Shown in pieces: positions 793 through 61,250 of a stretch of 64,000 nucleotides of DNA. Each line of letters begins with the position of its first letter. Position 1 is the stretch's first letter. The stretch is from Raillietiella orientalis. Taxonomy: Eukaryota. Under the pieces are notes generated by a model. That model was not told the DNA's origin and made no database searches. It saw only the letters and a list, made by a program, of their open reading frames with translations. The stretch spans positions 1-64,000 of the forward strand of contig JAYWIR010000040.1 of NCBI GenBank assembly GCA_036172245.1. The letters are read 5' to 3'. The translations under genes were made by a program, and so were the position numbers.

Positions 793-3700
793 AGATTGTC
801 TTTTTTTTTTCGGGGAATCCCGTAAGTCAAAGTCCGCCAAGGAGCCTAAGGAGTCAAAGTAGTTTGAATCTCGTCATCAACGTCATTTCTCGGTTTTGTG
901 TTGATTTCCAATGGGAATGGGATTGGGATTTTGTTCCCGTGGGAATGGGATTTTGTTCTAAATTTGAAACTGAGCCACCTTGCTCATACTGTTCTCAATC
1001 GGCCATCGCTATAGGCGTTAGAGCAACACATTGGAATTTCTTTTTGCAACATCGTAGCCCACAGAATTTTTGTTTTGTTTGCCGCCACAACCGCATCCCC
1101 TAGCCAGGAATACGGACACTGATTATTCAATCTACTCACAATACGAAATGGAGAATGTGGTTCACCGCAATTGCTTTTCTTCTCGTACCATTTCCAAGCA
1201 CGAATCACATGTCAATGCGTCAAAAGACGCATTGCACTAACGAGCTAGCTTCCTTGGTATCCAGATGGATGCTCTCTCTGTGGACTTCTTAATCGAGAAT
1301 CTACCACCGTAGCTAAACGAGAAATTCTATTTCGAAAATGCTCTGCGGCATGCGGCACAGATTCGTGGCCATTCAACTCGATCCCAGTCAACCCTTTGAC
1401 TTCAACAACCTAAATGTCAACAGATGTCAACCTAAATCAACCAACAGATGACTGCAAAGAAACAAACCTTGTTGAGTGGCAACACCGAAACTTTCACATT
1501 CAAGTGACTGATTCTATTCCACACCGAGTACCCATTTGTTGGCTTTAGTTCCTTCCTTTTTCTAGAGCTGCCATCTGCCTTCTAATCATGCTCTTTACAT
1601 CCCATTTTGTACATATGTCTGCCTCAATACCGCTCACAGAATCAGAAAGCTCATGGTAAACACCATCTCCTCTTCACTGTCCATGTTCCATCAATCCACC
1701 CTCCACCAGATATTCCATCTTACTACATCCATCACCATCCACCTATAGAAACCTTAGTCCCCAGGACTTTGACTATCCCTACATAAAGGTCCTCTGTGCA
1801 TTTACAACTATAATGAAATCAAAAACCATTAGCATTAACTTTGATGACTCCTCAAATGCCCTTTCAATCAACATCTTCATTGCCCTATTTTTCATCATTA
1901 TCTAAAATCAATCCACATTTGTCCCATAAATATTTCCATCTGCTCATTTCCTTACATCCTTCTATTTTCACTTTCAATGCAAGCTTGCTGAAGCATTCAA
2001 GGTTCATATCACTTACCAATCTACATACCCTGACCCTGTGTCTTTTCTTCTACTTTTCGAAACCTTAACATCCTCATTCAACGGATATCCCTCTGAGAAT
2101 CAGTCACATGTGACCACATTACCTGGCATATATGTCCAAATTGTTACAATCTCAAATACCTCTAGTAATCTCATCACTATCCCTCTCAAGCATATCCCTA
2201 AAATCAGCCATAGTTCCCATCCAAACTTACAACTTCACTAACAGAACCCGCATGTACATGAAAATATCCATGCAATACCAATCCACCAACCATTCCTCCT
2301 TCACCAATGCACATCCATGATTCATCCTTCATTCTCTTAAGCACCATTCATACCCCTCTCTCCAACCTGTTTACGCATGCAATCAGCACTCAACATACAC
2401 TCTTCAGGGTATCTACATTGGTAAGTTGAGTGGAAAAGAAAGAATTGAAACGAGAGTATGGATTTCCGAGCACCCTTTGCACAAAAATAAAAACTTTCCA
2501 ATTTCCAATCATTGCATTTATTTTCTCAGAAAGCTTCTAACTCGTTTTCATCTTCTGCCAATTTCTTCCCAGGTGAGATTCACCCACAACTCAACTTTTC
2601 CTCAAACTCTCTTGATGAAACCACACTACACACCTTAGCAGCACCCCACCTCGACACAATTTTTCTCGTGGGAACAAATACTGTGGCGAAAAGTCCGTGT
2701 TTCCTTTTATTCAAAAAAGGTGTTCCTTTTTCGTCGACTTCCCTAATCATTACCATCCCCATTTGTCTCCTATTCACGAGAATCTTTCCTGCTTAAATTC
2801 TCCATTACATCACCTCTTTTTGTTGACGCAACATTCCATGGTCTTCACCCGATTGCTTGCCTTATCCGACTCCCTATTTCAAATTCTCACTTCACTGCCT
2901 CCATCTTCCTTTTGATACGGACACTTCACAGGTGTTCCGTACGGATTCCTCTTCCTCATCCTGTACCGACGATCATACCCTTCTGGCATATAGGGTGCAA
3001 ATAAATTTCCACTATATAGCAATAAGCAGCAATTCTTTCCGAGCAACCTCGCACGACACATGAAAATAATGACCGAGGAACGAATACCGTTCATTCGAAA
3101 TGGGACCATTCGTTCGTTCCGCTGCACCATCCTCAGTTTCGTGGCACACGGCCTATTGCTCCGATCAGTCACTATCAACGCTGTGCTGCATCCGCAACAC
3201 CGGAAGAAAAATCTCTCGCATGCCAACTAAATTGTGGTTCAATCAATCACGCTTGTTTGGAGCAAACCGATTTTTACCCATTATCACCGAATTATTAGAC
3301 AATGCTCCTACTGCTAAGCTTCATTGAACGAAAGAAATTCGAAAACTCTGCTGCTTTAGATAATGAGTTGACCATCCCATTTCTCCCTCAAGGAACTGTC
3401 TTCTATCCAAGTTTCACTCACTACTAATCTTTCTACAGAAGTGCAGACGTAATGATTGCACATCCATACTCTACATAGAATGCCAGACCAGTTCGGACTC
3501 GTCCTCTGCTAAAGCATCCACGCCTAAGCACAAATTTTCTCGGCTGCAGAGTCGACAGTGCAAATCCATGATTGCCAGCTCTTCCCTGACCCGCCTCGCG
3601 CTCATAGAAGAAACGCCCTTCCTTTTCAAGAGCACACAAACAATATTCAGCCCTATTCTTTTCCTACCCACTCTCCTACCTTCAGAACGAAACACGTGCA

Positions 3701-4939
3701 TATCATTCGCAACGTAACTAGAAGACCCAATTTCTATCGAATCTGATTACGACCAGGCAGTTCATAATTTCCCTTACCTAGCAACTCTCCTTCCTCCCTT
3801 GGGGGCTGCACAGGCTCCATCCTTCCCTCAGGTTCTCCCATTCTCCATCGCACCCTCCCTTGAATTCAGCGCTGAGCAAAATAACATTGGTCTCGGTCAA
3901 TACGATACCATGGTCACCACGCAAACCCGTCGCATCACTATCAACACGTTTCACAATCGTTCGTAACTAAAAAATTTCCCATCTTCCCAATCCTTTCGTG
4001 ATGAAAAAGTATCTCACCAGCTCAAAGTGAAAAACCGTTTGCTTTATACCGATCTCCTTTCTAATCAGGCAGGATCCTTAGTTGAAGAAATCTTCCATGC
4101 GGCAAGCCTACCTAAGCAATTGAGCATCGAGGTCGCAATTCTCGACAGCAATCGCTACTCTTCCGTTGTATTACGTTGCCATTTTATGGTTATTCTTTTT
4201 TCTCTTCTTCTTGGTCACCGCTGCACGGCGACTAACGTCTAAACCATGCAGATGCGTTCTTCATTCTGTGTCACAGACAACGTGCTCCACGAGCTTCAGG
4301 TGAAGTTCCAGGGGCATGTTATTTTCGACACACAATGTGTTGTTCCAGTTTGCAGAGTACTTGAGAGTGGGAAAAAGCTCACTGTCAGTGTTTCTCTAAA
4401 ATACATCATATCAAAAATATGAAAGGAAACTGCTCCACGAATTGCAGTCTTTCACCCACGCTACCAAATGGATATGACGTCCTTATGCTGCAGCAACGCA
4501 ATCGAGGTACCGCCGGAGTTTCTTCAGAGACCGAGAAGACGTTACCTTACACCACACATCAGAAGACTGTCGTCCAAAAGTAAGAAAATGGTGCAGTGCA
4601 CTTTTGCTGAATTGCTTTTCACATCCTCACTTCACTACTTCTTGTTTCCTCAAATCTCTTTAACGGTAGCGTCCTTCCACCTAATCCATTCAAAAGTAGA
4701 AACCACATTCGCGATGAGATAAGCATACATCCGAATTAAGTATCGATCTTCCCTCAAATGAGCATACATAAGTTTCAAAGAATTCCCTCAAAGAATCCAA
4801 GGAAATTGCGCTTCAGTTTCCAAGTGGAAAAACAACAAGTAAGATTTCGCAACACGTCTGCGATGAAGAATCTTCCTCACTTACCCGCGTGGTCACGGTA
4901 CAACTCTCGACGAGACTGTTCTGTACCAGACCGGAGTGC

Positions 4940-6641
4940 AGCATGACCTCTTCCACAAGAAAAGCCCTGCGAAACCATGTCGGGTCCGACGGCAACGAAC
5001 GGAGACGCCGCAACCTGCCAACGGAAAGAGAATGGCCACGGAGGAAGCCCCGTCCATTAATATACTCATTAATGGATGGGTCAAGAAGAAAGACAAGAAA
5101 GCAGCGGACAAGCCAGAAGATGAGAGGGAAGAGAGCACTTCAGTTGGAATACCACCCGCGATGCCCCAACTAGAAGAAGAGGAGGAAGGAGGGCTTTTTG
5201 GCAATGTGGAAGCAATTGTAGACCCTCTGATCGAACATGCACTAAAGGAAGACACGGAAAAGAAGCAAAGACAACCTGCTCCCATCGACTGCAAAGTACG
5301 GTATAATAATTGCCCTCTCCTCCTGGGACAGCTTCCCCTAGCCACGGTCGCTCAGGAGAGCCAGTGAGAACAGCCATCACCAGAAAACACGAGCAAAACA
5401 GCAGCAATATAAGAGATATGCGAAACCAAGCAGGAAAGAAAAATGGACGCAAAGACCGAATTATTCCATGAAATTCAACAAAGAAAGAATCCATCTCCAG
5501 AAGATCCTGGATGGAGAAGGGCCTCGCTGAGGAGATCGTCCATCCAGGAACTCTACAATATGAACGGAAGAGCAGTTCGAGCCATTCTAGGTCAGCAGGA
5601 CCAAACTTGCAAGTTAGAGCTTGAGACGGTAAAAGAGCATTTTGAAAAGGAGTTGGAAATACAGATCAGACCAAGGACTTCCCTGGACGGTACTGCGGAG
5701 AAGAAGCCAGGCAGCATCTGCAATAGACCTATCTCCATTTAAGCAAAGATGCTCACCACAATGCTTAACGAATTTTGAACGGATTTCGTCGAATTCCAGA
5801 AACAAGAGTGGAAGTGCGTTGCTGGACAGAAAACAGAACGTTGTCCCACATACTGAATAGATGCAAGGGACCGGTTCCTTTGTCCGTGGCACGCCACGAC
5901 GCGGCTCAGGAGATTATCAGAAAGGCCGCAGTGCATGAAGCAAAGTGGAGTCTTGTGTAAAGAAACCAGAGAGTACCAGAGAGCAACTTCCACCTTAGAA
6001 CCGGATCGGGTCATGAAAAGAGGAAACTAAACATGTGTGCTAGACGTCTGCTGTCCACATGAGAATGGAAAAGAGGCGTTCAGCACAGACAGGAGGATGC
6101 AGGAAGGAAAACACAAGGACGTAGCAGTACAGCTGGGAAAAGGTGGAAATGAAAGCAAAGTACACGCGTTCATCGTTGGCTCTCTGAAGGCGTGGTATTA
6201 TCCTGGTAATGAAGAAGTATTACAAGATCCGGGAATGCCAAAGAAGAAGCTGGTGGAACGGAGGCACCGGACGGCAGCCGGTGCCTACGCGGTTCTCGAG
6301 TGAGATCTATGCCGTCCACATCGTAAGGAAAACATCCAGCCAGCCGGAGAATCCAGACAGTCTTTTCTCACCATACGAAAGCCAGGGAGTGGAGGATGGG
6401 AGCACCCTGAAGAAGAGTGAAGAGTGCCCCAAGTGGACAGAGAAAAAAGTGTGAACGATAGTCCAGAGCCCTTCTGCATCAGAAATCGAGTTCATGTCTT
6501 CGGGGTGGTCAAACACTTTGCATTTTTCCATTCGTTTGCTGAAGCGTCGTTCCCGTGAATCCATTCAGGGAATCCGTTGTTCCAGGCACGGAAGATGGAG
6601 GCTCAGGAAGTCTCTCCTCTACCCGAAATGACGGTTCGAAC

Positions 6642-6678
<37 letters not shown>
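4940..6678 (+). mobile_element. Degraded RLE-type non-LTR retrotransposon (NeSL/Utopia/R2-like) with the RT domain deleted and a poly(A) tail
   Basis: Pre-RT motif IQELYNMNGRAVRAILG...C...VKEHF (about 5540-5645). C-terminal zinc-knuckle/RLE motifs RTLSHILNRC, RHD, PD, DVCCPHENG and FIVGSL..WY..NE (5775-6300, frameshifted). A34 tail at 6645-6678. The 5' boundary is approximate. Confidence 0.75.
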
Positions 6679-6680
<2 letters not shown>

Positions 6681-6890
6681 AAAAATCCTCTATTTGATGT
6701 TACTGAAACGCCAAAGAAAAGCACCCCAAAAGTCAAAAGCAATATTATTCAAGGAAAAAGAAAAAACATACAATCAAAACACAAATAATGTTCGAAAGAG
6801 AAAACAAAGCTATTATTGCAGGGAATTCTTCTCTTGGCAGAGAACATAATTTTCGTCTCCTTCGATTTTGATTTGAAGCAGCTATGGATT

Positions 6891-8201
6891 CTATTGAATG
6901 ATTTCGTATACTAATTTCACGGGTTTTGGTGGACTCGATGAAATCTGGAAGGTTTTTTCAGCCCATTCATAAAGCATATCTCCAATATCACGATTGGTAT
7001 ATAATGTCATAACGACTTCGCCGGCTTCCACTTTTTCACCGGTCTTTTTATTTAGATAAATTCCTGCCATATGATCAATTGCTTCTTCTTTTGTGTTTCT
7101 GCCCGCACCTAAACCAACTGCTAGTAATCCGAGTTCATTCGTATCAACTATTTCAACGTACCCTGTTGTTTTAGCTTGAATTTCAATTTTCTTTTCAGTA
7201 TTTAACATTAAATCAAGATTATCCACATGATCCAATAAAGATAAATCTCCACCTTGCTCTTTGATAAAGTTCATAAAATATTCCAGTGGTTCCTTTGTTT
7301 TCAATTTAGCTTCACATGCCTTAAATGCTTCATCCAAATCATTATATTTTTCACTCTGACACAAACTTAGTGCTGCTGATTCACACACAATACTATGCAA
7401 ATCTTCAGATCCATTCCCCTGTAAAGTTTTCACAACTTCATAGATTTCAATTGCGTTTCCAATTGCCCGACCCAACGGTTGATCCATATTAGTAATTTGA
7501 GCTGCAATTTTTTTATCAAAATGTTTCCCAATTCCAACCATGATCTGTGCCAGTTGTTTTGCTTCAGGGACTGATTTCATAAATGCCCCCTTTCCACATT
7601 TAACATCCAAAACAATTCCTTCACTACCTGTGGCAATTTTCTTACACATGATACTTGCAGCCATCAATGGAATTGAATTCACAGTTGCACTTGCATTTCT
7701 TAGAGCATAAATCTTTTTGTCTGCTGGAACAATGTTGCTTGATTGAGCCATAATTGACATATTCACTTTATTAATAATCCGTTTGAATTCTTCAAATGAA
7801 ATTTCTACTTGAAAACCTTTGAAGCTTTCTAATTTATCAACTGTTCCTCCAGTGTGGCCTAAACCACGGCCAGACATTTTAGTAACCTTTAAGCCAAAAC
7901 TAGCTACTAATGGTGCATAGATTAAACTAACTTTATCACCAACACCACCAGATGAATGCTTATCTGCCTTAAATCCTTCAATACTTGATAAATCATATGT
8001 TTCACCGGATGCAATCATTGCATGTGTTAAATAGGAGATTTCCTTGACTGACATGGATTGAAAATAAACAGCCATCAAAAATGCTGACATTTGATAGTCT
8101 GGAATTTCACCGTTTGTATATCCGTCGATAATATATTTTATTTCTTCCTCTGAAAGTTCTTGTCCATTCTTTTTCATTTCAATTAAATCCAACATTCTCA
8201 T
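6891..8201 (-). CDS. pdp: Pyrimidine-nucleoside / thymidine phosphorylase, bacterial (Mollicute/Firmicute-like), 436 aa
   Basis: Intact intronless ORF starting MRMLDLIEMKKNG (ATG at 8201). Family motifs DKHSSGGVGDK, KMSGRGLGHTGGTVDKLES, PADKKIYALR, SIMCKK, LDVKCGKGAFMK and TNMDQPLGRAIGNAIE are present. Much more AT-rich than the flanks. Confidence 0.95.
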   Translation of the reverse strand: MRMLDLIEMKKNGQELSEEEIKYIIDGYTNGEIPDYQMSAFLMAVYFQSMSVKEISYLTHAMIASGETYDLSSIEGFKADKHSSGGVGDKVSLIYAPLVASFGLKVTKMSGRGLGHTGGTVDKLESFKGFQVEISFEEFKRIINKVNMSIMAQSSNIVPADKKIYALRNASATVNSIPLMAASIMCKKIATGSEGIVLDVKCGKGAFMKSVPEAKQLAQIMVGIGKHFDKKIAAQITNMDQPLGRAIGNAIEIYEVVKTLQGNGSEDLHSIVCESAALSLCQSEKYNDLDEAFKACEAKLKTKEPLEYFMNFIKEQGGDLSLLDHVDNLDLMLNTEKKIEIQAKTTGYVEIVDTNELGLLAVGLGAGRNTKEEAIDHMAGIYLNKKTGEKVEAGEVVMTLYTNRDIGDMLYEWAEKTFQISSSPPKPVKLVYEIIQ

Positions 8202-8244
8202 TTTGAGGTTGCTTTTATTTTTGTAGCTGTTCACTTTTTTGTTT

Positions 8245-8715
8245 TTATTTTGCAATTCTATTTGACGTTGAACCTTGGTTCAGTCAACAGTGGAAGTTGC
8301 CCCTATCGTTCTTTGAATTGGTTTTTTTGGTTTGGCTCTGAACTGAAAAAATCCCTACAGCATTAGATCATTTCCCAGAACAATCAAAAGCAAACTTTAA
8401 TGCTAAATCTGTTTCCCCCATTGATGGACGAGCGTTTCGAATAATACGTTCACCCTTTTGATGACCAGAAGTGATTCCATCTAAATCATCATCAAATCCA
8501 CCTGCACTGCCAGTATTAACACTGCCTGAGTTTCCTGACATTCAAATTTGGTTTGATACTTTGTCCACGTCAGCAAGTGATTTTTTGAATATATTATCTT
8601 TCCGATTGAGAGTATCACCCAATTTTTCAGCTTTACTTGCAACCTCTGCAATTGATTGGTTCGAAATGATTTCTTTACTGATTTCTTCAATTCATCCTTT
8701 GAATCTTCGTGATTT
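8245..8715 (-). pseudogene. Bacterial-like hypothetical protein segment, open only under translation table 4 (TGA=Trp)
   Basis: Manual translation KSRRFKG[W]IEEISKEIISNQSIAEVASKAEKLGDTLNRKDNIFKKSLADVDKVSNQI[W]MSGNSG...CSGK[W]SNAV...FHC[W]LNQGSTSNRIAK-TAA. About 156 codons with four TGA and no TAA/TAG, ending 44 bp upstream of the pdp ATG. No clear start, so possibly frameshifted from the upstream ORF. Confidence 0.55.
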
Positions 8716-8724
8716 TTACTATTT

Positions 8725-9066
8725 TTATATCAAATCATCATCCAAATCAATCTCCAAGCGAGCATCTCTTGTAGATGATTGAAATAAGTAAGTTGGACAT
8801 TCAATTCTTCCCATTCTATTGAACTCTTTATTTTTCAACATGCAATTACTTCAGGTTGATACACCAATTGCAACTTTGCTGGCAAACAAGTCACGCAAAA
8901 AGCTTTCAAGATGACTCCATAATTCATTACTGTGAAATAATTCATATCTCCATCAGTTGAGATTGGAAAAAATTTCCTCTGCTGCTGACATTGAATGTGC
9001 TGCAAGCGCCAAAATAGTTTGTTCAGCTTCAGCTAAAACATAAAGCTTTTGCACTTTCATTGCCAT
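8725..9066 (-). CDS. Bacterial-like hypothetical protein, 113 aa under table 4
   Basis: ATG at 9066 preceded by GGAGGTG. Reads MAMKVQKLYVLAEAEQ...NLN[W]WRYE...VST[W]SNC...DDDLI-TAA, with two in-frame TGA (8953-8955, 8851-8853). Confidence 0.45.
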
Positions 9067-9070
9067 TTTG

Positions 9071-9077
9071 CACCTCC
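9071..9077 (-). promoter_or_regulatory. Shine-Dalgarno-like site
   Basis: Minus strand GGAGGTG-caaa-ATG immediately before the 9066 start. Confidence 0.45.
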
Positions 9078-9464
9078 GTTTTCTCCATCATTACATTTCA
9101 AGGTGCAATTACATTATTCCATAATGTAATCTCCAAACGAGAATTCTTCCAATTTCCGTTAAATTATGACTGCATTTAACTCGTTCCGGAAACCTGTTTG
9201 ATTTCCGAATCGAGATTTTACGTAAGGAATAATAAAAGGTGAAATAATTCGCTCCCACACCCGAAAAAATTCCAAGAAAACGGTCTCTTTACTGCACCCA
9301 TTTTATTAATTTGGACGTGAATAACATAGAACGTTCAGAAGCCTCGAAAAATGAAACGAAATGTTTTCTCGTTTATTTTATTCGTTTTCATTATGGCAAC
9401 CTCAAAGGAAGAATGAAAAATCAGTTTTCCCTATGAAAATCGCAAAGATGAAGATATGTTGTTG

Positions 9465-10140
9465 CTAAGCGACTCCTTCCTGATTCTTAGCTACGGTGGA
9501 GGATGTTGGTTTTCTTTTTTTCTCCCGAGGGGAATTTCTCTCGTGTTGTTTGGTCTGACGGCTTTTTTCGATGTTTTCGAAATAGCCTAACTGATTGTGA
9601 TCAAATAAGTTGATACTCCTGGTAACCACCGTCTTATCAGGGTGCCATTTTTCCTCGATGGCTTGTGCTCTGGCCCAAACGGAGAACAGAGTTTCGAGGT
9701 CAGAATGGGAAATGCATCCCTTGACGCCCTTCTCTTCCAACAAAATTCCTTCTCCCACTTCTTCTTCTTGTTGAACGTGAAGATGTTGAAGTTCTTCTGT
9801 GCAGAGTCCGGCAATGTGATCATCTCCTGTGCATCCTCACTTCGAATCCCACAGCTCTACCCAAAGACACAATTTCATTTACAACAGACTGTTCTTCACA
9901 GCTTTCTATTTCTCCGACTGAAATGCAACCTGGACAGAGGTTTTTCCAAGCAAAAAATTCCATTCTTTCCATGCCTTGTCGATGATCGCTAAGCAGTGAA
10001 GGATGCTGTGAAGCTCCTTCGCAGAAATTCTTTGAGAGTCAGTTCTGTGTCATGGGTGATTTCAAAGCATTTTCAAAACGTGGCCTTAGTGTGCGCTGTG
10101 TTCAAGTTCGAAATGATTTGCTGGTCCATGGGCTGTGTGA
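9465..10140 (-). mobile_element. pogo/Tigger-like transposase remnant (C-terminal half)
   Basis: Minus-strand translation QPMDQQIISN...KCFEITHDTELTLKEF (pogo DDE_1 QPMDQ motif) and EKWHPDKTVVTRSINLFDHN, typical of Tigger C-termini. Stops and frameshifts are present. Confidence 0.7.
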
Positions 10141-10419
10141 GGGAAGTGCTATTGGCCAGCGAAAACTTTATCTTTATGAAAATAGATTCACCCACCGAAT
10201 GTTACTCGAAATTCGGAGGATGAGCAGGAGCGGCGTCCATCACTCTGATCGGCAAACCATTTTCAGGGAAATGTGAAAAAACGTTCTCAAAAGGATTAAC
10301 AAATACGTTTATCATCGATTCACAATAAACAAGGAAACTTTCACACACGCATATGTGCACACATGTATCTTTCTCTATATGTATGCTCATACATACGTGT
10401 TCATGTATACGTGCATGTA

Positions 10420-13229: not shown

Positions 13230-15295
13230 ATGGTTTCCGAACATCGCCTGAAGGACGTCGAAAAAGTTACCGCCTATTATTATCACGGTGGCCTCTCCTG
13301 AGGCCTATCCTTCGCTAGGGCTGATGACTTCGATCAATATCAAGGTGGCGATCTTTATCAAAAACGAGCTTGCCGCCACCATTCTGGAAACCTTCTGTCC
13401 CGTACCTGAAAGAGTCATCGCCTTACGGTTTGTTCTGGTCCGCAAATTTTTTCACCAGTTTCTGGTGAATGTTTACGGACCCCACCAAGACAAACCGTGG
13501 GACGGGCTTCGAGGTAAACAGGGCGAAGTCGTCAATCATTTCTCCGGACTCGTTGCGGGCAGGACGGTCAGGCTGGATCCGCTTGGGGATCCCCACGGGC
13601 GGGTACTTCAAGTACCTGGGCGTTCCGTTGGGGGACTTCTGCGCTGCAGAAGCCTGGTCCGACCGTCTCCAAAAGTGGAGTTGGCGATCGGCCCGTTTCG
13701 GGACGGCAAGTTTTACTTGCAGGAACGGGTGGCGGTGTGGAACGCTTTTGCGGCCCCCCTCCTCCGCCCCCTACTTTTTGTATGCCCCATACCTCCCCGA
13801 ATTCGACAAAGGACGAGGGGCCTCATTAGAAAAGCCCTCTGGGGCAATCGGAGGCCCCTCGTCCGTCTTAAAGACTTGTGCGCTCCACGCAGGGACGGTG
13901 GACTTGGTCTCCTGACGCTGGAGCGCATGAAGCGACAGCTCCGATTCCGCAAACTTGCATTTGTGGCAAAGTACTGGACCGCACCCTGGTGTGCACCTTC
14001 ACGAATCCTGGCTCAGAGGGCAACCGGCTGCCATGGATTGACCTCAATCCTAGTAGCCAACGACCGCAGCCTTAACCACTGTGGTTTTCAGCTGCGGGAA
14101 TTGGTTTCCCTGTTGAGAGACAATCCGTGGATCTCCTGCATCCCAGCGGACTGGATTACCTGGCTCCAGGAATCCGTTTCCGCATGGGCTAAAATCAACG
14201 GCTCCAGCGATGAGGACTTCTCCTGCCTCCGTAGAGGCAGGTACGCTGGTCAGCCACTGCAGGAGATCGTCAGCAACCCATGGAAGCTTCTGTGGGCCTC
14301 CTTTACCCCCCTTGCCCCAGTGCTGCCCTCCCTTAGGGAAGTTCGGGACAGCCAGCAGGAGGCATCGTGGGAAGTGTCCTGCCTCATCGGAGGCAGGAAA
14401 AAATTATTGAAGGCGTGGACGTCCCGGGAACTAGCGGAAGCTAGTACCCCGAGTGTCCCGCCAAATGGACTTTCACGCTGGGGCGCGCTGCTCGAAGTAC
14501 CTCCGGAGGAGGTAAAGTGGCCCCCGGTGTCGTGGAATAACGGCACCCTTCCCCTGCAGTGGCAGGAGACGGCGTTGCTTCTGCTCCATTGGGGACTGTT
14601 AAGCAGAGCGCGCTTGTCTCACTGGACACAAGGGAGTGTGGATGCTAGTTGCCCAGACTGTGGGGAAAGAGAAACCTTTGCTCACTTGATCATTGAGTGC
14701 GTTGCCCTTCGCGATATGTGGAACCGACACTCGTCGATCTTGAACATTCCGCGGCGCGACCCGAAGAACATTTTTCGACTCCTGATGCGGGACGCCTTGC
14801 CAGCTTCCGGGTGTGTAGCAGTGCTCTGTTGCGTACGCGGAATACTGGACAAGTGGACCGCGTCAAGGAGAGGACATGCCAGTCGGAATGCCATCCACTG
14901 GGCAACCATCTCCTTGGAGAAGGCCTGCCGTTGGCGCCGACTTGGAAAACACTTACAGGCATCCGTGACCGGATGCAGAGGCCTCCTCACGGCGTACCGG
15001 GATTCCTTCCCTTCCCTCCCCCTCCCAAAGAACATTGCCCCCCCAGGCGTTTTCTTGTTTTTGTTTATTTTCGGTTTTCTTCGCCCCTTCACCAGTGTAG
15101 AGGACCTTATCGTCCTTCGGGTCGGTAAGGACAAGTGCCTCAAGACATTCGGGCCATATGTCCCGACTGAAAAACAAGAACAACAACAACAACAAAAAAA
15201 AAAAAAACAAATCATGACTGTATTATGAAATTTTTTTTGTGTATTTCGAAAAATTTTAATAATAAAAGCCCCGGCTCACCGGGGTGAAAAACCCA
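13230..15295 (+). mobile_element. L1/Tx1-clade LINE with an internal deletion (APE fragment joined to the RT C-terminus and zf-RVT)
   Basis: APE-like KVAIFIK...ERVIAL...LVNVYGP, then in another frame GFEVNRAKS...FKYLGVPLG (late RT). Followed by LCAPRRDGGLGL and LLHWGL...CPDCGERETFAHLIIEC. Ends with AATAAA plus a hairpin at 15261-15290. Confidence 0.85.
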
Positions 15296-15539
15296 AGGCG
15301 GCGCTCCTGGTTTGAAACGCTGCCCTATCACCAAGAGCTCGTGAAGGCGGTGCTGCAGTCGACCACCATCAGCAGAATCGCCGACTGGGATAGCATGAAA
15401 CACCGTGTCCACCTCCTCTGCAACATGTAGTTCGGAGACAGGAGACTGAGGCAATAAGCGTACCGGGAGCTGAACATTCAAGATCGCTCCCTCTCGAAAC
15501 ACTGGCAAGAGTACGAGAGTCGGTACGTCTTCCTAAACA

Positions 15540-18210
15540 TCAAGGGAGAAGTGGAAGTGTTGGAGAAGAGGAATCTGGCAACAGATATGTTCTGTATCCA
15601 TTACGATGGTCGTGCCAGCCACTGGTCGGAAGACATCACTGAAGCCTTCCAGAGGCATTACGTGGAACACTTCCAACGCAGACATCTGTGCAAATTTTAC
15701 GAAAATAGCTTCCTGAAACATCTGGAGAAAAGAGTCGATGAAAAAAAGCGAAAGCTACGTTTAAGGATCTTCGCAAGGATGTGGCACAGGGTCCTGATAA
15801 TGTTCCCATCTCACACTATCAACGGTACCTGCATGCCTACAAGCATTTGTTCTACCAGCTGACGCTACGCATCATGGAAGACGGACGACTACTGCAATCC
15901 TTCTATGAGAGTAGGATGAGATTGTTGCCAAGAGGAGGCGAACTCACGCAGGTCACCCAATGGAGGCCAATCTCGATCCTCAACTTCGATGCCAAGTAAT
16001 TGGCGAACATACGGGCCAACCGCCTAGGCAAGGTCTTGCCGAGGCTGATCTCTCCGGTCCAAAAATGTGCGGTGCCTGGACGTCACATGTCGGCCAAGGT
16101 CAAGTGTGCCCAAGCTACCATTGGACTCAGCCGATATATCGGCGAGAACTTGGTGCTAGGCTTCACTGACACGGAGAAGGCTTTCGATACGGTGGACCAT
16201 GAGATGCTGCTGAAGATTCTAGAAAGACTGGACCTCCTGGAATACTTCGGCAACTTCGTGAAGATGATACTCGAACAACAACATTTCCACATCAAGATAA
16301 ACGGGGAAACGACAGCAGCTATTCGCATGGAACGCGAAGGCCATCAGGGCGATGCTGTAAGTCCGATGCTGTTCGTTATCTATATGGAGGCCGTCTCGTC
16401 GTTCATCGAGAGAACTGAGTACCTCCAAGGAATCAAAGTGGACATTGAAAGGTTCACCCATCTGGCCTACGCAGACGACCTTCTCTTCTTCTTGAAAAAG
16501 GAGAGAGACCAGCAAGGATTTCTGCATGTGGTGGAGCTTATGAGGGAAGGATTGGGCTTGAAGATCAACGCCCAGAAGAGCCAGCTTTTGCCCGTCGGAA
16601 TCCTGGACCTCTCTACACTCAAGAGGAGAGGATTCCGTACGGTGGATCGAATTACGTACCTGAGTGTCCACATCGGAGATGCTTCGGCACCCCAATTACT
16701 GTGGAAGGAAGTCCTGGGGAGAACAGCAGAGCAAGGAGCGAAGTACAGCCGCTCGGACTTCAATATGAAGAAGAGGGTCAATCTTTGGAACGGAGTTCTC
16801 CTTTCAAAGATACTCTTTGGAGCGGCCTTCTCTACAACATCCCAGAACACCGAGCGCGAAATGGAAAAGCTTTAGCGGAGAACCCACTGGGGAAAATGTC
16901 GACCGAGAGTACGCCTTAAGCCACTGTGTCGTCCTAAGGAAGAAGGAGGATCCGGTATGAAGTCGTCTGCATACGCCGTGGACGTCATGGACATGCGACA
17001 AATCCTGGAAATGTATTCCAACTGAGACGACTGGCCGTACGCCACGCACAGGGCGTACTCGCTGTTGCGGAACAACTCGAGAGGCCTGATGACTGCGCTG
17101 GTCGGCAGAGTTGGTGAATGGTCCACCATCGACCCGTCGTGTCGAAGGAAACAGGAACACGTCAAGAAACATTTCTTGAAAATGATCCCGAAGAGCAAGG
17201 AACTTTGGCAGGAGGAATCCATCCAGGTTATCCCGTGGATGCTCCCCGTGCAGGATGACACGAGGACCAGGATAAACCAGAGGACCGGAGTGACTTTTCG
17301 TGATAATGAATCATGGGCACGACGACGACACCTGCATCATTCTCGGGTGCTGCGTTATGTCGAAAGGATTTCTGGCAGCTTCGCATTCAGGACACGCGAA
17401 GTGTGGAAGAATCATCGCAACTTCGCATGGTCCAGAGTAACGAAGAGGAACATTCGCCAGCTATTAGGAGAAGAAGACTTCAGCGCCCTCCAAGATGCCG
17501 CCGACCGCTACGCTAGTAGTGGATTTAATCCACTGGCGATTGAGACGGTGCTCTAGAGGAGTGATTTAGCACCGGAAACTCAGGATAATCTCCTCAGGTT
17601 CTTCCATGGAGGTATCATGAGTGGTTCCAGGATGAAGCACTTCACGGGAATAGGAGACGAAGAAATCTGCAGGAAGTGTGGTGGAATAGATACAAGACGT
17701 CACGTACTGACTTCCCCCCCCTGCAAGCCTAGTGGACTACTCTGAAAAGGGCCATCGGGCTGTCCAGCTCCTCGACGATGGAGGTTTGGGCAGAGAAGTT
17801 CCAAAGAACTGGAACGGTTTCCCGCTATAACCCTATGGTAAGAGTGACGATCGCCGTTTTCATCACCGCCATTATTGTAAGGTGGTGGAAGATGAAGACC
17901 ACGAGGACCACAATATCTCCCCTAGGAAACCTGATAGGGCTCATCCAGAAAGAGATTGGCATTAAAAACTGCGGACCAGTGCAGGTCTGGAACTACCGAA
18001 ACATCCTGAAAAGGATTGGAGGAGGAACCCAGGCCCAAACGACACCCAGCTGATTAATGCAGCGAACTTTCCAGAGACCCCAAGAAGCAGACTTCAAGTG
18101 AACCCCAGCGATAGGAAGTGCAATCTTTGTGCAATTTGTATGCATGAGATTGTAGTGTGAAAGAGAAAATAAATTCACCCCAACCCTTGCAGGACTTGGG
18201 GAAACGTTAA
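15540..18210 (+). mobile_element. L1/Tx1-clade LINE ORF2 pseudogene with RT domain (second family)
   Basis: WRPISILNFDAK*LANIRANRL, DTEKAFDTVDH, QGDAVSPMLF, YADD, GLKINAQKS, LCRPKEEGG and a CRKCG knuckle. Multiple stops. AATAAA at 18168. Confidence 0.9.
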
Positions 18211-22090: not shown

Positions 22091-22574
22091 AGTTGGGCTG
22101 CGTGGGAAGTGTGTGGCTTGCGAGACACGTGCTTCTTTCGAGGTTGCAGACATATCCACGGGGATGTTCTCCGGGAAGAGGGTGGTGTTGGGATGGGAAA
22201 TGGGGGAAGGATGGGTGGGGGATTCGCAACGGATACCCATATTTGGAGGGGGGGAGCTAAGTAGAGGGAAGGTCAGGTGTAGGGTGGGTGATTGGGTCGA
22301 GTGGACGCACCAGCTTAAATGCGACGGAGGATTCCCGCAACTTGAAGTCTGGTTTCCGGGCAGTGCAAGAAGCATCGCAGGGATTTGTGGAGCAGGGACA
22401 GAGCAAAGCTCCTAGCGATCGCTTCCTGTGTTGCAGCTTTAGGATTCTTCTTGATACTGAAAAGAAGGAGTGGGTGGGGGCGGCGCCACGCTGCATGCAG
22501 GACGGCGACCAGCTTCAACGAGCAACCACTCTTTCGGAAGCGTTCTGCTAGACAGACGCGGCCAAAAAGAATTG

Positions 22575-22692
22575 GTCCACGGCACCCGGGGTTCCCAGGC
22601 GGTCGCCCATCCAAGTACTGATCGGGCCCGACGCTGCTTAACTTCGCCGATCGAACGAGAGACGGTGCTTTCAGCGTGGTGTGGCCGTGAAC
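22575..22692 (-). rRNA. 5S rRNA
   Basis: 118 nt GTTCACGGCCACACCACGCTGAAAGCACC...AGTTAAGCAGCG (box A)...TACTTGGATGGGCG (box C)...GCCGTGGAC. Termini pair, and a T5 terminator follows. Confidence 0.95.
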
Positions 22693-37675: not shown

Positions 37676-38428
37676 GCAGCGAGGTTACGATGGTAGGCGT
37701 TTCCTAGAGGGAGACCTTCACTCCCGCATAATGCTTGCGGAATACGAAGAGTGTTCACCACAGAGGATCGGTCCTTCGTGCTCAGTTAGAAAACATTTGC
37801 GTGCGGTGCTTCGGATCGTGACATCATTGCGGCGCTGGCGGGTCACTAACGTGCACACCCTCTGCAGGAGAGGAAGCCTCTTGAAAAGCGGCACGCGCAT
37901 CTTACAAAAAACCGGAAATCTCGCACAAACCGGAAATCGGCAGAAGATTCGCAGGACCCTGGTTTGTAGGTCAAGTAAACGTGTGCAGCGCGACGAGTCA
38001 CCTCAAAAATAGGTGCCCGAAAAGAGAGTGCCACGGCTTCAATCAGCTTTGGCATATCAGAAACGCATACCCTGCGTTCGCGCAAGAGGCCTCCCGCACG
38101 GCGCCGATACAGTCTGCGATCCTCTACCAAATCGGAGGTCTCGCTGGTAGAAGCTTCCAGTTCCCAGTCTCCTTGGCAGCAGCGTTCGGAAGCACAAAAG
38201 GTGAACTTGATCGCGAGCGGCCTCGGGGTTCATCTGCAAGAACGCGCTCCAAACGGCAAGCAAGCACAGAAAGCTCCTGCGCAAACGAAGCGCCTAAGGC
38301 ACGTTGTGCAGCAGCATCATCCTTAAAGGAATGCAAGGCGACCTGCTACTCCTGTAGCCACTGACTCCGGAGACACGCAATCACGCAAAAGTGGGAATTT
38401 TCTCCAGAGATGCGGGCGCAAAAGTTTC

Positions 38429-38546
38429 GTTCACGGCACCCGGGGTTCCCAGGCGGTCGCCCATCCAAGTACTGATCGGGCCCGACGCTGCTTAACTTCG
38501 CCGATCGAACGAGAGACGGTGCTTTCAGCGTGGTGTGGCCGTGAAC
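38429..38546 (-). rRNA. 5S rRNA
   Basis: Identical to 22575-22692 except one base at the 3' end (GAAC vs GGAC). T4 downstream. Confidence 0.95.
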
Positions 38547-39708: not shown

Positions 39709-39828
39709 GTGGACGGCCACGTCTCTCTGAAAGCATCGTCTCTCTCTTCCGATCGGCGAAGTTAAGCAACATCGGGTGCGGTTAGTACTTGGATGGGCGT
39801 ACGCCTGCTAACTCCGGGCGCCGTGACC
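39709..39828 (+). pseudogene. Divergent 5S rRNA copy (pseudogene or variant)
   Basis: gtggacggccac...ctgaaagcatcgtctct...cgatcggcgaagttaagcaac...gtacttggatgggcg...gccgtgacc followed by T6. Many mismatches in the helices. Confidence 0.8.
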
Positions 39829-40150
39829 TTACTCTTTTTTCCTTTTCTGTGCGCTGTGCGTCTCTGAGCAAGAAGACTTCAAAGTTGAACGCGAACTTGC
39901 TGATTGTCCTTTCGGTTTGGATAAGCAGTTCCTCCGACATGCGACTTGCCCTTTGCAAAGCCTTCGGGGCGGCAGATGAGAGGACGCGTGTGCTTTTGCT
40001 GGTACGATGCTCGTGGCCTCGAGGCACCGTCTCCGTTTTGTGCTGCTCCATTGGATGCCCGCCCGCGCGGGTGCAAACTTCTGACCGCCTGGTGCCTCGT
40101 AAGTTAGGCCTCTTTAGCGTAAGAAAGGAGCCGTTAACGGAATGCTTGTC

Positions 40151-40268
40151 GTTCACGGCCACACCACGCTGAAAGCACCGTCTCTCGTTCGATCGGCGAA
40201 GTTAAGCAGCGTCGGGCCCGATCAGTACTTGGATGGGCGACCGCCTGGGAACCCCGGGTGCCGTGGAC
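40151..40268 (+). rRNA. 5S rRNA
   Basis: Same 118 nt sequence. T5 at 40274-40278. Confidence 0.95.
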
Positions 40269-40689
40269 CAATCTTTTTGCGCCCGCGCCTGTCCAGAAAA
40301 TTCCCACTTGTCGTAACCAACCGACGATTTTTTGCACACTTTTCCTTTCATACTTTCGTTGTGCTCTTCTGTGCACTGCTTCTTGACTTCTCAGCTTTTC
40401 GTAGTCTCTCTAGAAAACCTGCCACCCCTCTTCCGTTTCGAAATTCAAATGTCTTCTTGGGCAGAGTGATGGTGGAAGCTCTTTTTCTGCTCCTCGTTTA
40501 GCGCTGCCTTTGAGTCCTCCTGTCATTCGTCCTTGAATCCGTCCGCTGTCTGTCTCCAAGGATGCTGCGGGTGCTGTTCCTCTGCGTGCAAAGCCACGTG
40601 GAAATTGGCATGGAAAGCACAACTCCAATGGAGCTTTTCGAGCTGCTTGCCACCGTGGCAACCAACGGTTTCACTCCATGGAAATGCAT

Positions 40690-57251: not shown

Positions 57252-57369
57252 GTTCACGGCCACACCACGCTGAAAGCACCGTCTCTCGTTCGATCGGCGA
57301 AGTTAAGCAGCGTCGGGCCCGATCAGTACTTGGATGGGCGACCGCCTGGGAACCCCGGGTGCCGTGGAC
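57252..57369 (+). rRNA. 5S rRNA
   Basis: Same 118 nt sequence. T5 at 57376-57380. Confidence 0.95.
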
Positions 57370-57393
57370 CAATCCTTTTTGGCCACCTCTGAT

Positions 57394-58250: not shown

Positions 58251-59399
58251 CAACATTCCTGAGGTATCCGTCAGACTTTTTTGAATTTTTCAAATGGAAG
58301 AATTTTTTTTAAAGTCTCCGCAAAGTATTTACAGTGTGCCTTCCATGGATTGCTTTGATACAGAGTGTGCAAACCAGATAACCCCTTTGTATGAATCCAC
58401 ACTTGCACTGCAAACAAAGAATTGAGAACGCATCGTGGAATCGGAAGATGAGTTGGTAACTCTGGCTGCAGATTCGTGAGACGAGGCGTTCTTTCAGGTG
58501 GTATTCAAGGTTTCGGAAGTGCTAAAAACCGAACGCGGAATTCAGTAGGGGTCGCGATCGTTGTGGCTTGAGGGGATCACGTGGTCAGGTTGCCTTTCCG
58601 CCAAAGTGTAGTCAACGTTTGCTTTGTGTGGTAAAACACGTAGGCAGCTGTGCAATGAGCCCCCAGTGCATCGAAACAAGGATGAAAGAGATCGAAGACT
58701 GCTATGCCCTTTCCTTTGCTGCAATCCAGTGTTTCATGAAGACGACCTGTTTCTGCGTCGAAGCGCCAGCTGCCTCGTGGAAACTTCTTCCATCTATGGT
58801 TCTTCATAATCAGGCAAATATGAGGTGTGTGCATGACTGTGGAGAATGCTTGCCTTTCGAAGCCAGAATGTTTTTCCACTCCGGGAAACCCGGTCGCGTC
58901 GGTTAACTTAGTTGTGTTGGTCACTGTGTTCTTTGCAATCAGATTGCAATATGGATGGGTTGACTTGGATCAAGTGGTTCAGATGTGCCTTGATAATGGA
59001 GCTGATAGTCGCAAGAACAGCTTATGAGATTATAAGGCTGAAGCGTAACTGAAATGAACTGGAACCATTTCCGGACTTCAAGCCAAGTTATTGACCCTAT
59101 GATTTGTTTATTATTTACATGCTAGTTGAGAAACCCACTCTGTGTAGGCGTAGGGTGCTAAACATGGTTTGAAGTTCCTGATGAGCAGCTAAGATTGAAA
59201 ATACTTTATCTAGCAAAGTAGATCCAAGCGCATGTATGTCTGAAACCATATTTCAGTTTGAGCCTATTCTTATGAAATGCAGGAGTTTCCAAATCAATAT
59301 CGCAAAGATATAAAATCCGTGTCCGAAAAACATATATCTGAATTCTTAATGGAACTTGCTTGTTTAGGAAACAACTGCACGTTGTCACACTCATGATGT

Positions 59400-61250
59400 T
59401 TTCCCGATTAAAATGCTTTGGAATCTGTTAACAGGTCAATTATGATTCACGATGACAGTGATGAATAATGTCCGCATTAAATTGTTGGAAGCTGCACCAG
59501 TATGTGCTTTTGACCAGTATTGCTGATTAGTAATGACAACAAAATGGAATGTAGCTTTTCAATTATGAACTATCTCAAGTCTTTGAGTTTAGATTTAGAT
59601 TCATTATAAATGTTAAGTTGTTTTGTTTGCTAACTTTGTGCTGACTAGAAATCTTAATGTGTACATTGATTTGCAAAAATGTTTCTATCATGACATGGTG
59701 CTATGATACAAGATTTTATACAAACTTTGATTTTTTTTTTGAACATTTGAGGTTTCCATCAGATGCTTCTGTATGCTTTTCTGTGAGATTGCCTTAGAAA
59801 ATCTGCATCGTGTTGCTAGGCATTTGAACTTTGTTTCTCTGATCATGGAATTTGTCTCAAGACTTTATTGGCAAGTGTAGTGGAGCCATCCCATAGTTTT
59901 CACCATGTCTTCCTGGCATGTACTCATTTTATGCAAATATGTTTCTCATGTGGTATCTGGGGGCCTTTAATAGGTAAAGTTGCCACGAAAGGTTGATGTT
60001 CAAACTCGAAAAGTGCTTTTCCATTTTGAGAAGTGAATATTATGTGGTTACATTACGAGATTTCAAATGGTCAAGCCAACTGTCAGGGAAATGAAATTTG
60101 TAAATATGATATTTTGTGAACGGATCTGTTCTTATTTCTTAGATCAGAAGTAGAATAAAAGTCTTTTATGGAAAAAAACATGAGTTTGACAGCAAAATCC
60201 TTTGATCAGGCTTCATAAAAACTGAAGGATCTTCCTCAGTATAGGTGCTTCTTGCTGCATGATGAATCTGAACAAATTTATGTTTGAAATGCTTGTGAAC
60301 TTGGTTCAGTAGCCTTGAAATAGATTTCATTTCATGACATAGTATGGAAGCAAATGAACCAAAATACAACCAGACACTAATTAGAATAATGTTTTGGTCA
60401 GGGAAGGCATGTAGAGCATTGACTTGCAATTGGTGTAGTGAAGGACAAGAAAATATGGGTATAATGATTGAACTTATTTTGTGAAACAGCTGTATTACTT
60501 CATTTCTCATTCTGAAGTGTATTGCCTTTTTTGCTATGTACTTAAGCAAACTGACTATTTGCATTCTGAAAATTGCAGTTTTGCAAAACATGCATAAAAC
60601 GTGTTGGATGATGAGGATGCCAAATCATTTCTGATTAGAAAAGTTTGCCTTCTTAAAAAGTAGCAATTCCAGTCTTTCATTGTAAACATATGGGGACAAT
60701 AGTGAGATGGTCGTTTTAGTTCCAGGCTTGAAATTCAAACTATATCCATGAAGTCTTATCACCTTTTGCCATGCACAAGGCAGTTTGAGAAGCTCCAGGA
60801 TGGCAAAAAAGTTTACAAAATGTTCATCAGAGTTAGCGAAATGGTTAGTTGGAATGAGTATGCAACTGGGTGTGTTGAAAGATTTGCCCTTAGATTGTTG
60901 TGCGAACATCTACTTGCAATTAATGGATGGAAGTAGAGAATGTGAGCAAAACATTTTGTGAAGGGGAAATGTTTGACAGATGAATCAGCAGCTGTAATGT
61001 AAAACATGCTGGAAACCAAGATTGTTTCTGTGTGAGGTATCTAGCAATGCGTTCAGATTTACAGTAGGAAAATTTACCAAAGAGTAAACAGAATTTGCCA
61101 TGGAATTGATCCAATTCCATGATGGCGTGGATGAAATTATCAGACTGGCACCAGGGTCATCCTTTGCACTTCTCTTTCTTTGCAAGCATAAAGGTGGCAT
61201 ATGTTGGAACAGATTGACATCTGTTTTAAATGACTTGATTTCAAACATTC
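59400..61250 (+). mobile_element. Possible decayed MULE-like transposase
   Basis: AT-rich broken frames containing a SWIM-like GC......LLCEHLLA at about 60865-60920. Confidence 0.2.

Follow-up and report, generated by a model that had tools for sequence, protein, structure and literature searches.

Can a gene from a bacterium that reads TGA as tryptophan (Trp) come to work in an animal? A like question has been asked of the ribosome-inactivating protein genes of mosquitoes, and PMC5431988 rejects Spiroplasma as their donor because several TGA codons would need reversion. The question returns with the first 64,000 nucleotides (nt) of contig JAYWIR010000040.1 (assembly GCA_036172245.1), hereafter the window, in which a bacterial pyrimidine-nucleoside phosphorylase gene, pdp, stands intact beside the dead remains of two other bacterial genes, dnaB and rplI. 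An earlier note on this DNA had proposed a nuclear insertion from a Mollicute symbiont, and this is borne out by protein matches, trees and decayed paralogues on host contigs, with Spiroplasma as the donor. Overall, the best explanation, which we put at a probability of about 0.7, is a Spiroplasma insertion that has decayed except for a domesticated pdp.

The intact pdp gene and its dead copies

The gene lies on the minus strand (8201..6891), has no intron and is open over 436 codons. Its 436-aa product scores 550 bits against TIGR02644 (cut-off 409), and the helical, alpha/beta and C-terminal domains (PF02885, PF00591 and PF07831) are present in order, all above cut-off; the Bacillus-type equivalog NF004747 reaches 538 bits, below its cut-off of 559. 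The protein is 77% identical over its full length to those of S. eriocheiris, S. mirum and Spiroplasma sp. DGKH1. All seven site residues named in PMC13629066 (D80, K81, H82, K108, Q153, Y165 and K188, numbered as in 1BRW) are kept, and of 148 columns that are otherwise invariant just four carry a different residue, a conservative one in three cases. In full-length identity, domains and site residues it is like Spiroplasma Pdp (TIGR02644; solved structures 1BRW, 5OLN and 5EP8), from which it differs in lying on an animal chromosome, in the loss of the plsC and scpA neighbours and of the ribosome-binding site, in TGG for TGA at W413, and in Asn at position 169. At the dnaB/pdp junction the pdp Shine-Dalgarno site is replaced by CAAAATG. 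No signal peptide was seen by eye, and the protein is most likely cytosolic, predicted to split uridine, thymidine and deoxyuridine with phosphate into the base and (deoxy)ribose-1-phosphate, or to run in reverse for salvage.

The insert block has nine matches on six contigs of 0.5 to 7.5 Mb in the 210-Mb assembly. Four of these copies, on C9, C31, C65 and C2, are decayed (74-81%), with stops and frameshifts. C9 and C31 lack the same 348 bases (window 7997-8345), including the pdp start codon and the first 68 codons, a loss that probably killed their lineage. Two further pdp copies identical to that of the window were identified on C24: one belongs to a reverse match of 23.5 kb that extends to both contig ends and resembles an assembly overlap, and the other is an inverted duplicate at 99.7%. 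We count one to three intact copies, probably two. C24:1-43221 is itself a large inverted duplication with a 1.5-kb spacer and 186-bp perfect inverted ends, both arms of which match the beginning of C40; either it exists in the genome or the assembly folded back on itself there.

With a neighbouring gene that died and copies of pdp that also died, the locus contains internal controls that make selection after the transfer directly measurable. When the window copy is compared with its C9 and C31 paralogues, with three Spiroplasma outgroups, nonsynonymous divergence (dN) is 0.016-0.020 on the window branch versus 0.147-0.153 on the paralogue branch. Of the single-base changes, 12 are synonymous and 4 nonsynonymous in the window lineage, as against 11 and 29 in the paralogue lineage (Fisher p 0.002). 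Three-way synonymous divergence (dS) was unstable, with a negative value on the paralogue branch, because the outgroup is near saturation; it was left unused, and selection was judged from dN, from site counts and from the branch lengths of the trees. Since the split, the window copy has changed by 0.035 per site in pdp versus 0.16 in dnaB, and the paralogues by 0.25 in pdp and 0.26-0.27 in dnaB. The stem before the split is longer for dnaB (0.62) than for pdp (0.33), which suggests that pdp was already protected by then. Under simulated neutral change, from which indels were excluded, the frame stayed stop-free in 25 of 2000 runs at 0.10 changes per site and in 5 of 2000 at 0.15. We have little doubt that pdp has been under purifying selection in the host, and it is probably still expressed and active.

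Donor, integration and the code barrier

An origin of the insert in Spiroplasma appears almost certain from sequence comparisons. Among the 18 best of 120 listed protein matches to pdp, all ten named proteins are from Spiroplasma, and the first match from another genus is at 53%; the best of 80 genome loci is that of Spiroplasma sp. DGKH1 (77%), followed by one at 56%. Nesting of Pdp within Mollicutes, suggested as a check in the earlier note, was found in a quick tree of 53 protein rows, which places it inside Spiroplasma (Shimodaira-Hasegawa-like approximate likelihood ratio support, SH-aLRT, 99). There pdp pairs with P0002 (support 99) inside a group of Mirum, Citri and Chrysopicola (99). 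P0002 is 81% identical to the pdp protein, shares ten derived residues with it and is encoded on a 2.2-kb contig; a metagenome scan for the DNA context of P0002 returned nothing above 50%. More careful DNA trees, with 20 rows for pdp and 24 for dnaB, are unrooted and hold Spiroplasma rows only besides the host copies; in both, these copies fall together (100/100) and the Mirum clade is nearest (100/99). The predicted donor is an unsampled Spiroplasma lineage near the Mirum clade, whose known hosts include freshwater crustaceans and biting midges according to PMC4607517.

Integration in the host nuclear genome seems as secure as the origin. In the assembly, the insert is joined to host DNA at seven places on six large contigs, with host flank in common. 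The C9, C31 and C2 paralogues share the flank with a pogo-type transposon remnant that adjoins the insert in the window, and contig C2 also bears an intron-split thymidine kinase. In a first, stricter look, a 16S search of the assembly gave three matches, all at 18S loci, and the 18S gene scores 1740 bits as eukaryotic. When a 9.3-kb Spiroplasma locus was compared with the assembly, only pdp matched and no other gene of the donor locus was found. Three of eight contigs from one public run match near-exactly: two, at depths of 3.3 and 3.9, lie in pdp, and the third, an exact match at depth 4, lies in host flank. No contig of the run, which is perhaps not independent of the assembly, spans an outer junction.

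The stretch upstream of pdp is occupied by a dnaB pseudogene (8208..9066, minus strand) corresponding to about codons 1-290 of 455, broken by nonsense codons and small indels and ending about 10 nt short of the pdp ATG. DnaB family matches reach E values down to 2e-11, an nhmmer match runs from 9056 to 8270 (E 1e-104), and the local alignment, with a score reached by none of 200 shuffles, extends to about 8208. The Walker A lysine is altered and the C-terminal third is gone. Beyond it lies the decayed 3' end of rplI, the gene for ribosomal protein L9 (9074..9169, minus strand; nhmmer E 1.1e-4), which marks the right limit of the bacterial DNA. The rplI end is matched at the same place in C9 and C31 as well; at the protein level alone it is not significant (E 0.73). 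The order rplI-dnaB is that of Spiroplasma. The GGAGGTG motif reported earlier before the ATG at 9066 is present at 9077-9071, 4 nt before that ATG, and is dnaB's own relic Shine-Dalgarno site (9071..9077, minus strand), set within the last codons of rplI; the 22 Spiroplasma loci have an AG-rich site of the AAGGAG type at the corresponding position.

Read without regard to this decay, the same DNA gives a frame (9066-8245, minus strand) that the earlier note took for a gene with TGA as Trp. Its stops are where that note placed them: TGA at 8955, 8853, 8694, 8544, 8370 and 8286, TAA, TAG and TAA at 8727, 8721 and 8718, and a terminal TAA at 8247. The decoding proposed for them does not hold: when 22 Spiroplasma DnaB proteins are aligned with the frame, none of the six TGA codons meets a Trp, and these proteins contain no Trp within their first 273 residues. 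By DNA alignment, the TGA at 8955 and at 8286 arise because small indels before them have shifted the frame. Those at 8853, 8544 and 8370 took the place of Leu, Glu and Thr/Ser codons, and the C9 and C31 paralogues do not have TGA at these positions. The TGA at 8694, opposite Val and common to window and paralogues, is alone among the six in that it could have encoded Trp in the donor. A 15-base frameshifted patch makes up the stop cluster at 8727-8718. That the frame is a dnaB pseudogene and not a code-4 gene is, judging from these alignments, as good as certain.

By coordinates, dnaB and pdp are 147-190 kb apart in three Mirum-clade genomes. We therefore read the insert as a chimera and rejected the idea that the two genes adjoined in the donor; an unsampled donor with a rearranged genome would be possible. 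A plsC remnant upstream of pdp was also tried as a candidate and was not significant (44-126 of 200 shuffles scored as high); dnaB accounts for the stretch. Past an indel near 8329, the true dnaB frame is the pdp frame (window 8329-8202, minus strand). The ancestral insert may have carried dnaB fused in frame to pdp; by chance the frames would agree in 1 case in 3, and around 8231 the alignment is not clear-cut.

Code 4 has left a single trace, and it points the opposite way: pdp has TGG here where the donor's relatives have TGA. The sole Trp codon of pdp (W413; 6963..6965, minus strand) is TGA in all 17 full-length Spiroplasma pdp genes, and TGG in the window and in each of the four decayed paralogues. 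TGG therefore predates the duplications, and the standard code reads pdp in full. In contrast to the mosquito genes with their several TGA codons (PMC5431988), pdp has one, 24 codons from its end, so that the code barrier amounts to one base. The locus shows how a gene from a donor with TGA as Trp can pass into an animal, which PMC5431988 argued to be unlikely. At the W413 column P0002 has Arg, a second possible route round TGA that is not diagnostic, since Leu, Cys or Ser occupies this column in other rows of the Spiroplasma group.

We propose that long ago the germ line of an arthropod acquired, beside a pogo-type remnant, about 2.3 kb of DNA from a Spiroplasma close to the Mirum clade, as an insert that joined two segments, one with the rplI end and dnaB and the other with pdp. 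Only pdp would have been both readable and useful, given a single Trp codon that was, or became, TGG. The host would have kept pdp as dnaB and rplI decayed, and the region would have been duplicated several times, leaving one lineage intact and four copies dead. Like nuclear Wolbachia transfers (nuwts) and nuclear mitochondrial DNA segments (NUMTs), the insert is a patchwork of bacterial segments among host repeats that was later duplicated and decayed. It is unlike them in coming from Spiroplasma and in having one gene that did not decay.

Functional transfer from Spiroplasma to arthropods is already known. According to PMC13320244, murQ (MurNAc etherase) of Camponotini ants comes from Spiroplasma and is expressed in eight species, and 37 of 497 ant transfer loci are from Spiroplasma/Mycoplasma. 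Like murQ, pdp is a single, old Spiroplasma metabolic gene kept in an arthropod nuclear genome. The two differ in enzyme and host group and in the evidence, which is selection for pdp and expression for murQ, and pdp may replace a host enzyme. The main text of PMC13320244 contains none of the words "thymidine", "deoA" and "phosphorylase"; this does not cover its supplementary tables, and pdp could be among its 37 loci. In the open-access literature, subscription journals not being covered, we found neither an animal genome reported to carry pdp nor Spiroplasma DNA reported from pentastomids.

The host, the role of pdp and competing explanations

The host is almost certainly an arthropod, and mitochondrial sequence points to a probable pentastomid. 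The best three of 120 listed COX1 matches are pentastomids (72-73%), followed by insects at up to 71%, and a 19-row COX1 tree, with no other crustaceans, mites or myriapods and possibly subject to long-branch attraction, joins the host to pentastomids versus 15 insects (100/100). With a barcode-length stretch of COX1, the closest match was no better than 68%. The genome holds 54 COX1 matches, suggesting that it takes up foreign DNA readily. On contig C282 a partial cox2 duplicate (1774-2966) lies between cox1 and cox2, so C282 may be a NUMT or a rearranged mitogenome. Pentastomes are reptile lung parasites, at least one of which uses invertebrates as first hosts (PMC10355681). If the host is a pentastomid, the insert would be a record of past Spiroplasma infection, of which we found no report for that group, in a parasite of the crustacean line that can have invertebrates among the hosts of its life cycle, as PMC10355681 describes.

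To place pdp in the metabolism of this animal, we considered the native enzymes around it. Arthropods normally have uridine phosphorylase and dihydropyrimidine dehydrogenase (DPYD). In the 210-Mb assembly, searched exon by exon, a native uridine phosphorylase gave no match with either of two models, and searches for a native thymidine phosphorylase matched only the transferred copies (11 of 11 and 5 of 5). The PF01048 search returned four exons, of PNP and MTAP. Genes for TK1, DERA, DHODH, ATCase, uridine kinase (UCK) and UPRT-like proteins, some of them intron-split, were found by the same kind of search. For dihydropyrimidine dehydrogenase, two models expected to reach it matched only DHODH, and reductive pyrimidine breakdown may be lost. 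DHODH itself occurs twice on C82 (35203-41793), inverted and about 4.6 kb apart, in a pattern like the C24 duplication.

Given these genes, pdp probably stands in for the uridine phosphorylase of animals, and its likeliest role is the interconversion of pyrimidine nucleosides and bases, in either direction. It may clear dietary thymidine and uridine, with the sugar phosphate passing to DERA and central metabolism. Alternatively, it may salvage bases for TK1 and UCK. We lean slightly towards pdp as the sole pyrimidine-nucleoside phosphorylase of the animal. If so, this would be a metabolic difference from the vertebrate hosts, worth testing with known inhibitors and nucleoside analogues. More tentatively, and less likely than not, tongue worms, or a branch of them, would have lost the animal uridine phosphorylase and would use a structurally unrelated Spiroplasma enzyme instead, a non-homologous replacement across the code barrier. 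A single TGA in the gene would have let it cross, and it would have been fixed for long enough that related species share it; under such a replacement P0002 might, just as tentatively, be the orthologue in a related species.

Several observations weigh against the best explanation, the first four of them against a live gene. D169, which adjoins the base-binding R168 and is Asp in 118 of 121 proteins, is Asn here; we take this Asp to be catalytic in the human enzyme, a role that our literature look-up did not find. Within the Spiroplasma group the column is Asp in 26 of 30 rows, with Asn in one other Spiroplasma and Gly in two. No canonical AATAAA occurs within 990 nt below the pdp stop, and all four dead paralogues have one across the stop codon. 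No promoter stands out, an initiator-like motif at 8346 being one of five in 1400 nt, and no promoter or poly(A) motif of pdp is above chance. GC content at third codon positions (GC3) is 0.25, the value of the Mirum clade, so codon use has not shifted toward the host. The lack of a dihydropyrimidine dehydrogenase match means that the normal route for degrading freed bases would be closed, so that a plain catabolic role is less convincing, and absence from an exon-by-exon search of an assembly is no proof of gene loss. Moreover, since Trp codons in the Mirum-clade loci are 36 TGA and 29 TGG (a count that includes some spurious frames), TGG is frequent in Spiroplasma and the change from TGA may have occurred in the donor. 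At the stop itself (6891-6896) the four dead copies have TAA within AATAAA, and the intact copy has TAG, giving AATAGA.

These features could mean that pdp was long useful and has only recently been silenced or weakened, its frame not having had time to decay. D169N with two neighbouring changes, the want of a poly(A) signal, a repeat inserted about 200 nt below the pdp stop and a repeat-rich setting, in which none of 56 other long frames has a Pfam match, would all fit. We consider this unlikely in view of the near-complete conservation of invariant columns, the short pdp branch over its whole length (0.035) and the want of any other enzyme of the kind in the assembly. A little less probable still is a pdp that is alive and additional, not a replacement, with the native uridine phosphorylase absent from the assembly only or with a shifted specificity. 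The assembly may be incomplete, no match is not gene absence, and the changes at 169-171 border the base pocket; set against this, eight other nucleotide-metabolism genes, several intron-split, were found by the same search and the seven named site residues are unchanged.

Two further explanations concern the nature of the block. Spiroplasma sequence misjoined into a host contig would account for GC and GC3 that match Spiroplasma, for the lack of public-run contigs bridging the outer junctions, and for the position of all intact pdp copies within 35 kb of a contig end. It would not account for the presence, on four further large contigs, of decayed paralogues with the same host flank, for a truncated and dead dnaB, which a living bacterium needs, or for an assembly in which neither bacterial 16S nor another donor-locus gene was found, and such contamination is very improbable. 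Even less credit is due to a code-4 island in which the upstream frame is a real gene: six TGA codons set against three internal TAA/TAG, behind a good ribosome-binding site, favoured it, and it is contradicted by the want of Trp at any of these positions in the 22 DnaB proteins or anywhere in their first 273 residues, by the shortness of the frameshifted patch that holds the stop cluster, and by the changed Walker A lysine and missing C-terminal third.

Flanks of the insert and other features of the window

The block is AT-rich, as first described, with a GC content of 0.35 in the bin 7001-9000 versus 0.40-0.48 in adjoining bins; bin 59001-61000 is equally AT-rich. Of the three co-oriented minus-strand frames then listed, the one below pdp is not a gene: it has no family match above noise, no likeness to the Spiroplasma DNA downstream of pdp (95-179 of 200 shuffles reach an equal score) and no nhmmer match at that place. 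We treat it as 3' flank of pdp (6686..6890, minus strand); 6737-6890 is common to the window and the C65 paralogue. The limits given for the block, 6680..9130, change accordingly, since bacterial DNA extends on the right to 9169 and is demonstrable on the left only to the pdp stop at 6891.

On the left, the poly(A) reported to adjoin the block is there, as a run of 34 A (6645-6678) that ends a dispersed repeat of the host (5750..6678, plus strand; its 3' end). All 40 scored candidates (of 181) match this repeat. A Pfam search of the repeat gave no profile match to confirm its family. We read the repeat as a non-LTR (long terminal repeat) retrotransposon, presumably with zinc-finger and restriction-like endonuclease motifs.

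On the right, the pogo remnant proposed earlier corresponds to a weak pogo/Tigger-type DDE_1 match at about 10060-10245 (E 0.012, below cut-off). The transposase remnant (9510..10245, minus strand) is host DNA duplicated along with the insert. The region is common to C9, C31 and C2 at 77-82%, and among 40 scored candidates of 240 the pogo part matches only pdp-linked copies. Capture and spread of the insert by a pogo element was tried and rejected, as no bracketing terminal inverted repeats appeared among the five longest inverted pairs in each of five regions; segmental duplication fits the spread better. In C9 (about 3200-4330, local numbering) and the matching stretch of C31, a retrotransposon 3' fragment and a piece that we take to be histone H2B-like lie between the pogo remnant and the bacterial DNA.

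Elsewhere in the window, a second retrotransposon was identified at 13252-16872 (plus strand; RVT_1 E 6e-20, with a weak zf-RVT match). Five 5S rRNA copies (22574-22692, 38428-38546, 39709-39829, 40151-40269 and 57252-57370) are scattered in both orientations among the repeats, and four of the five score about 103 bits.

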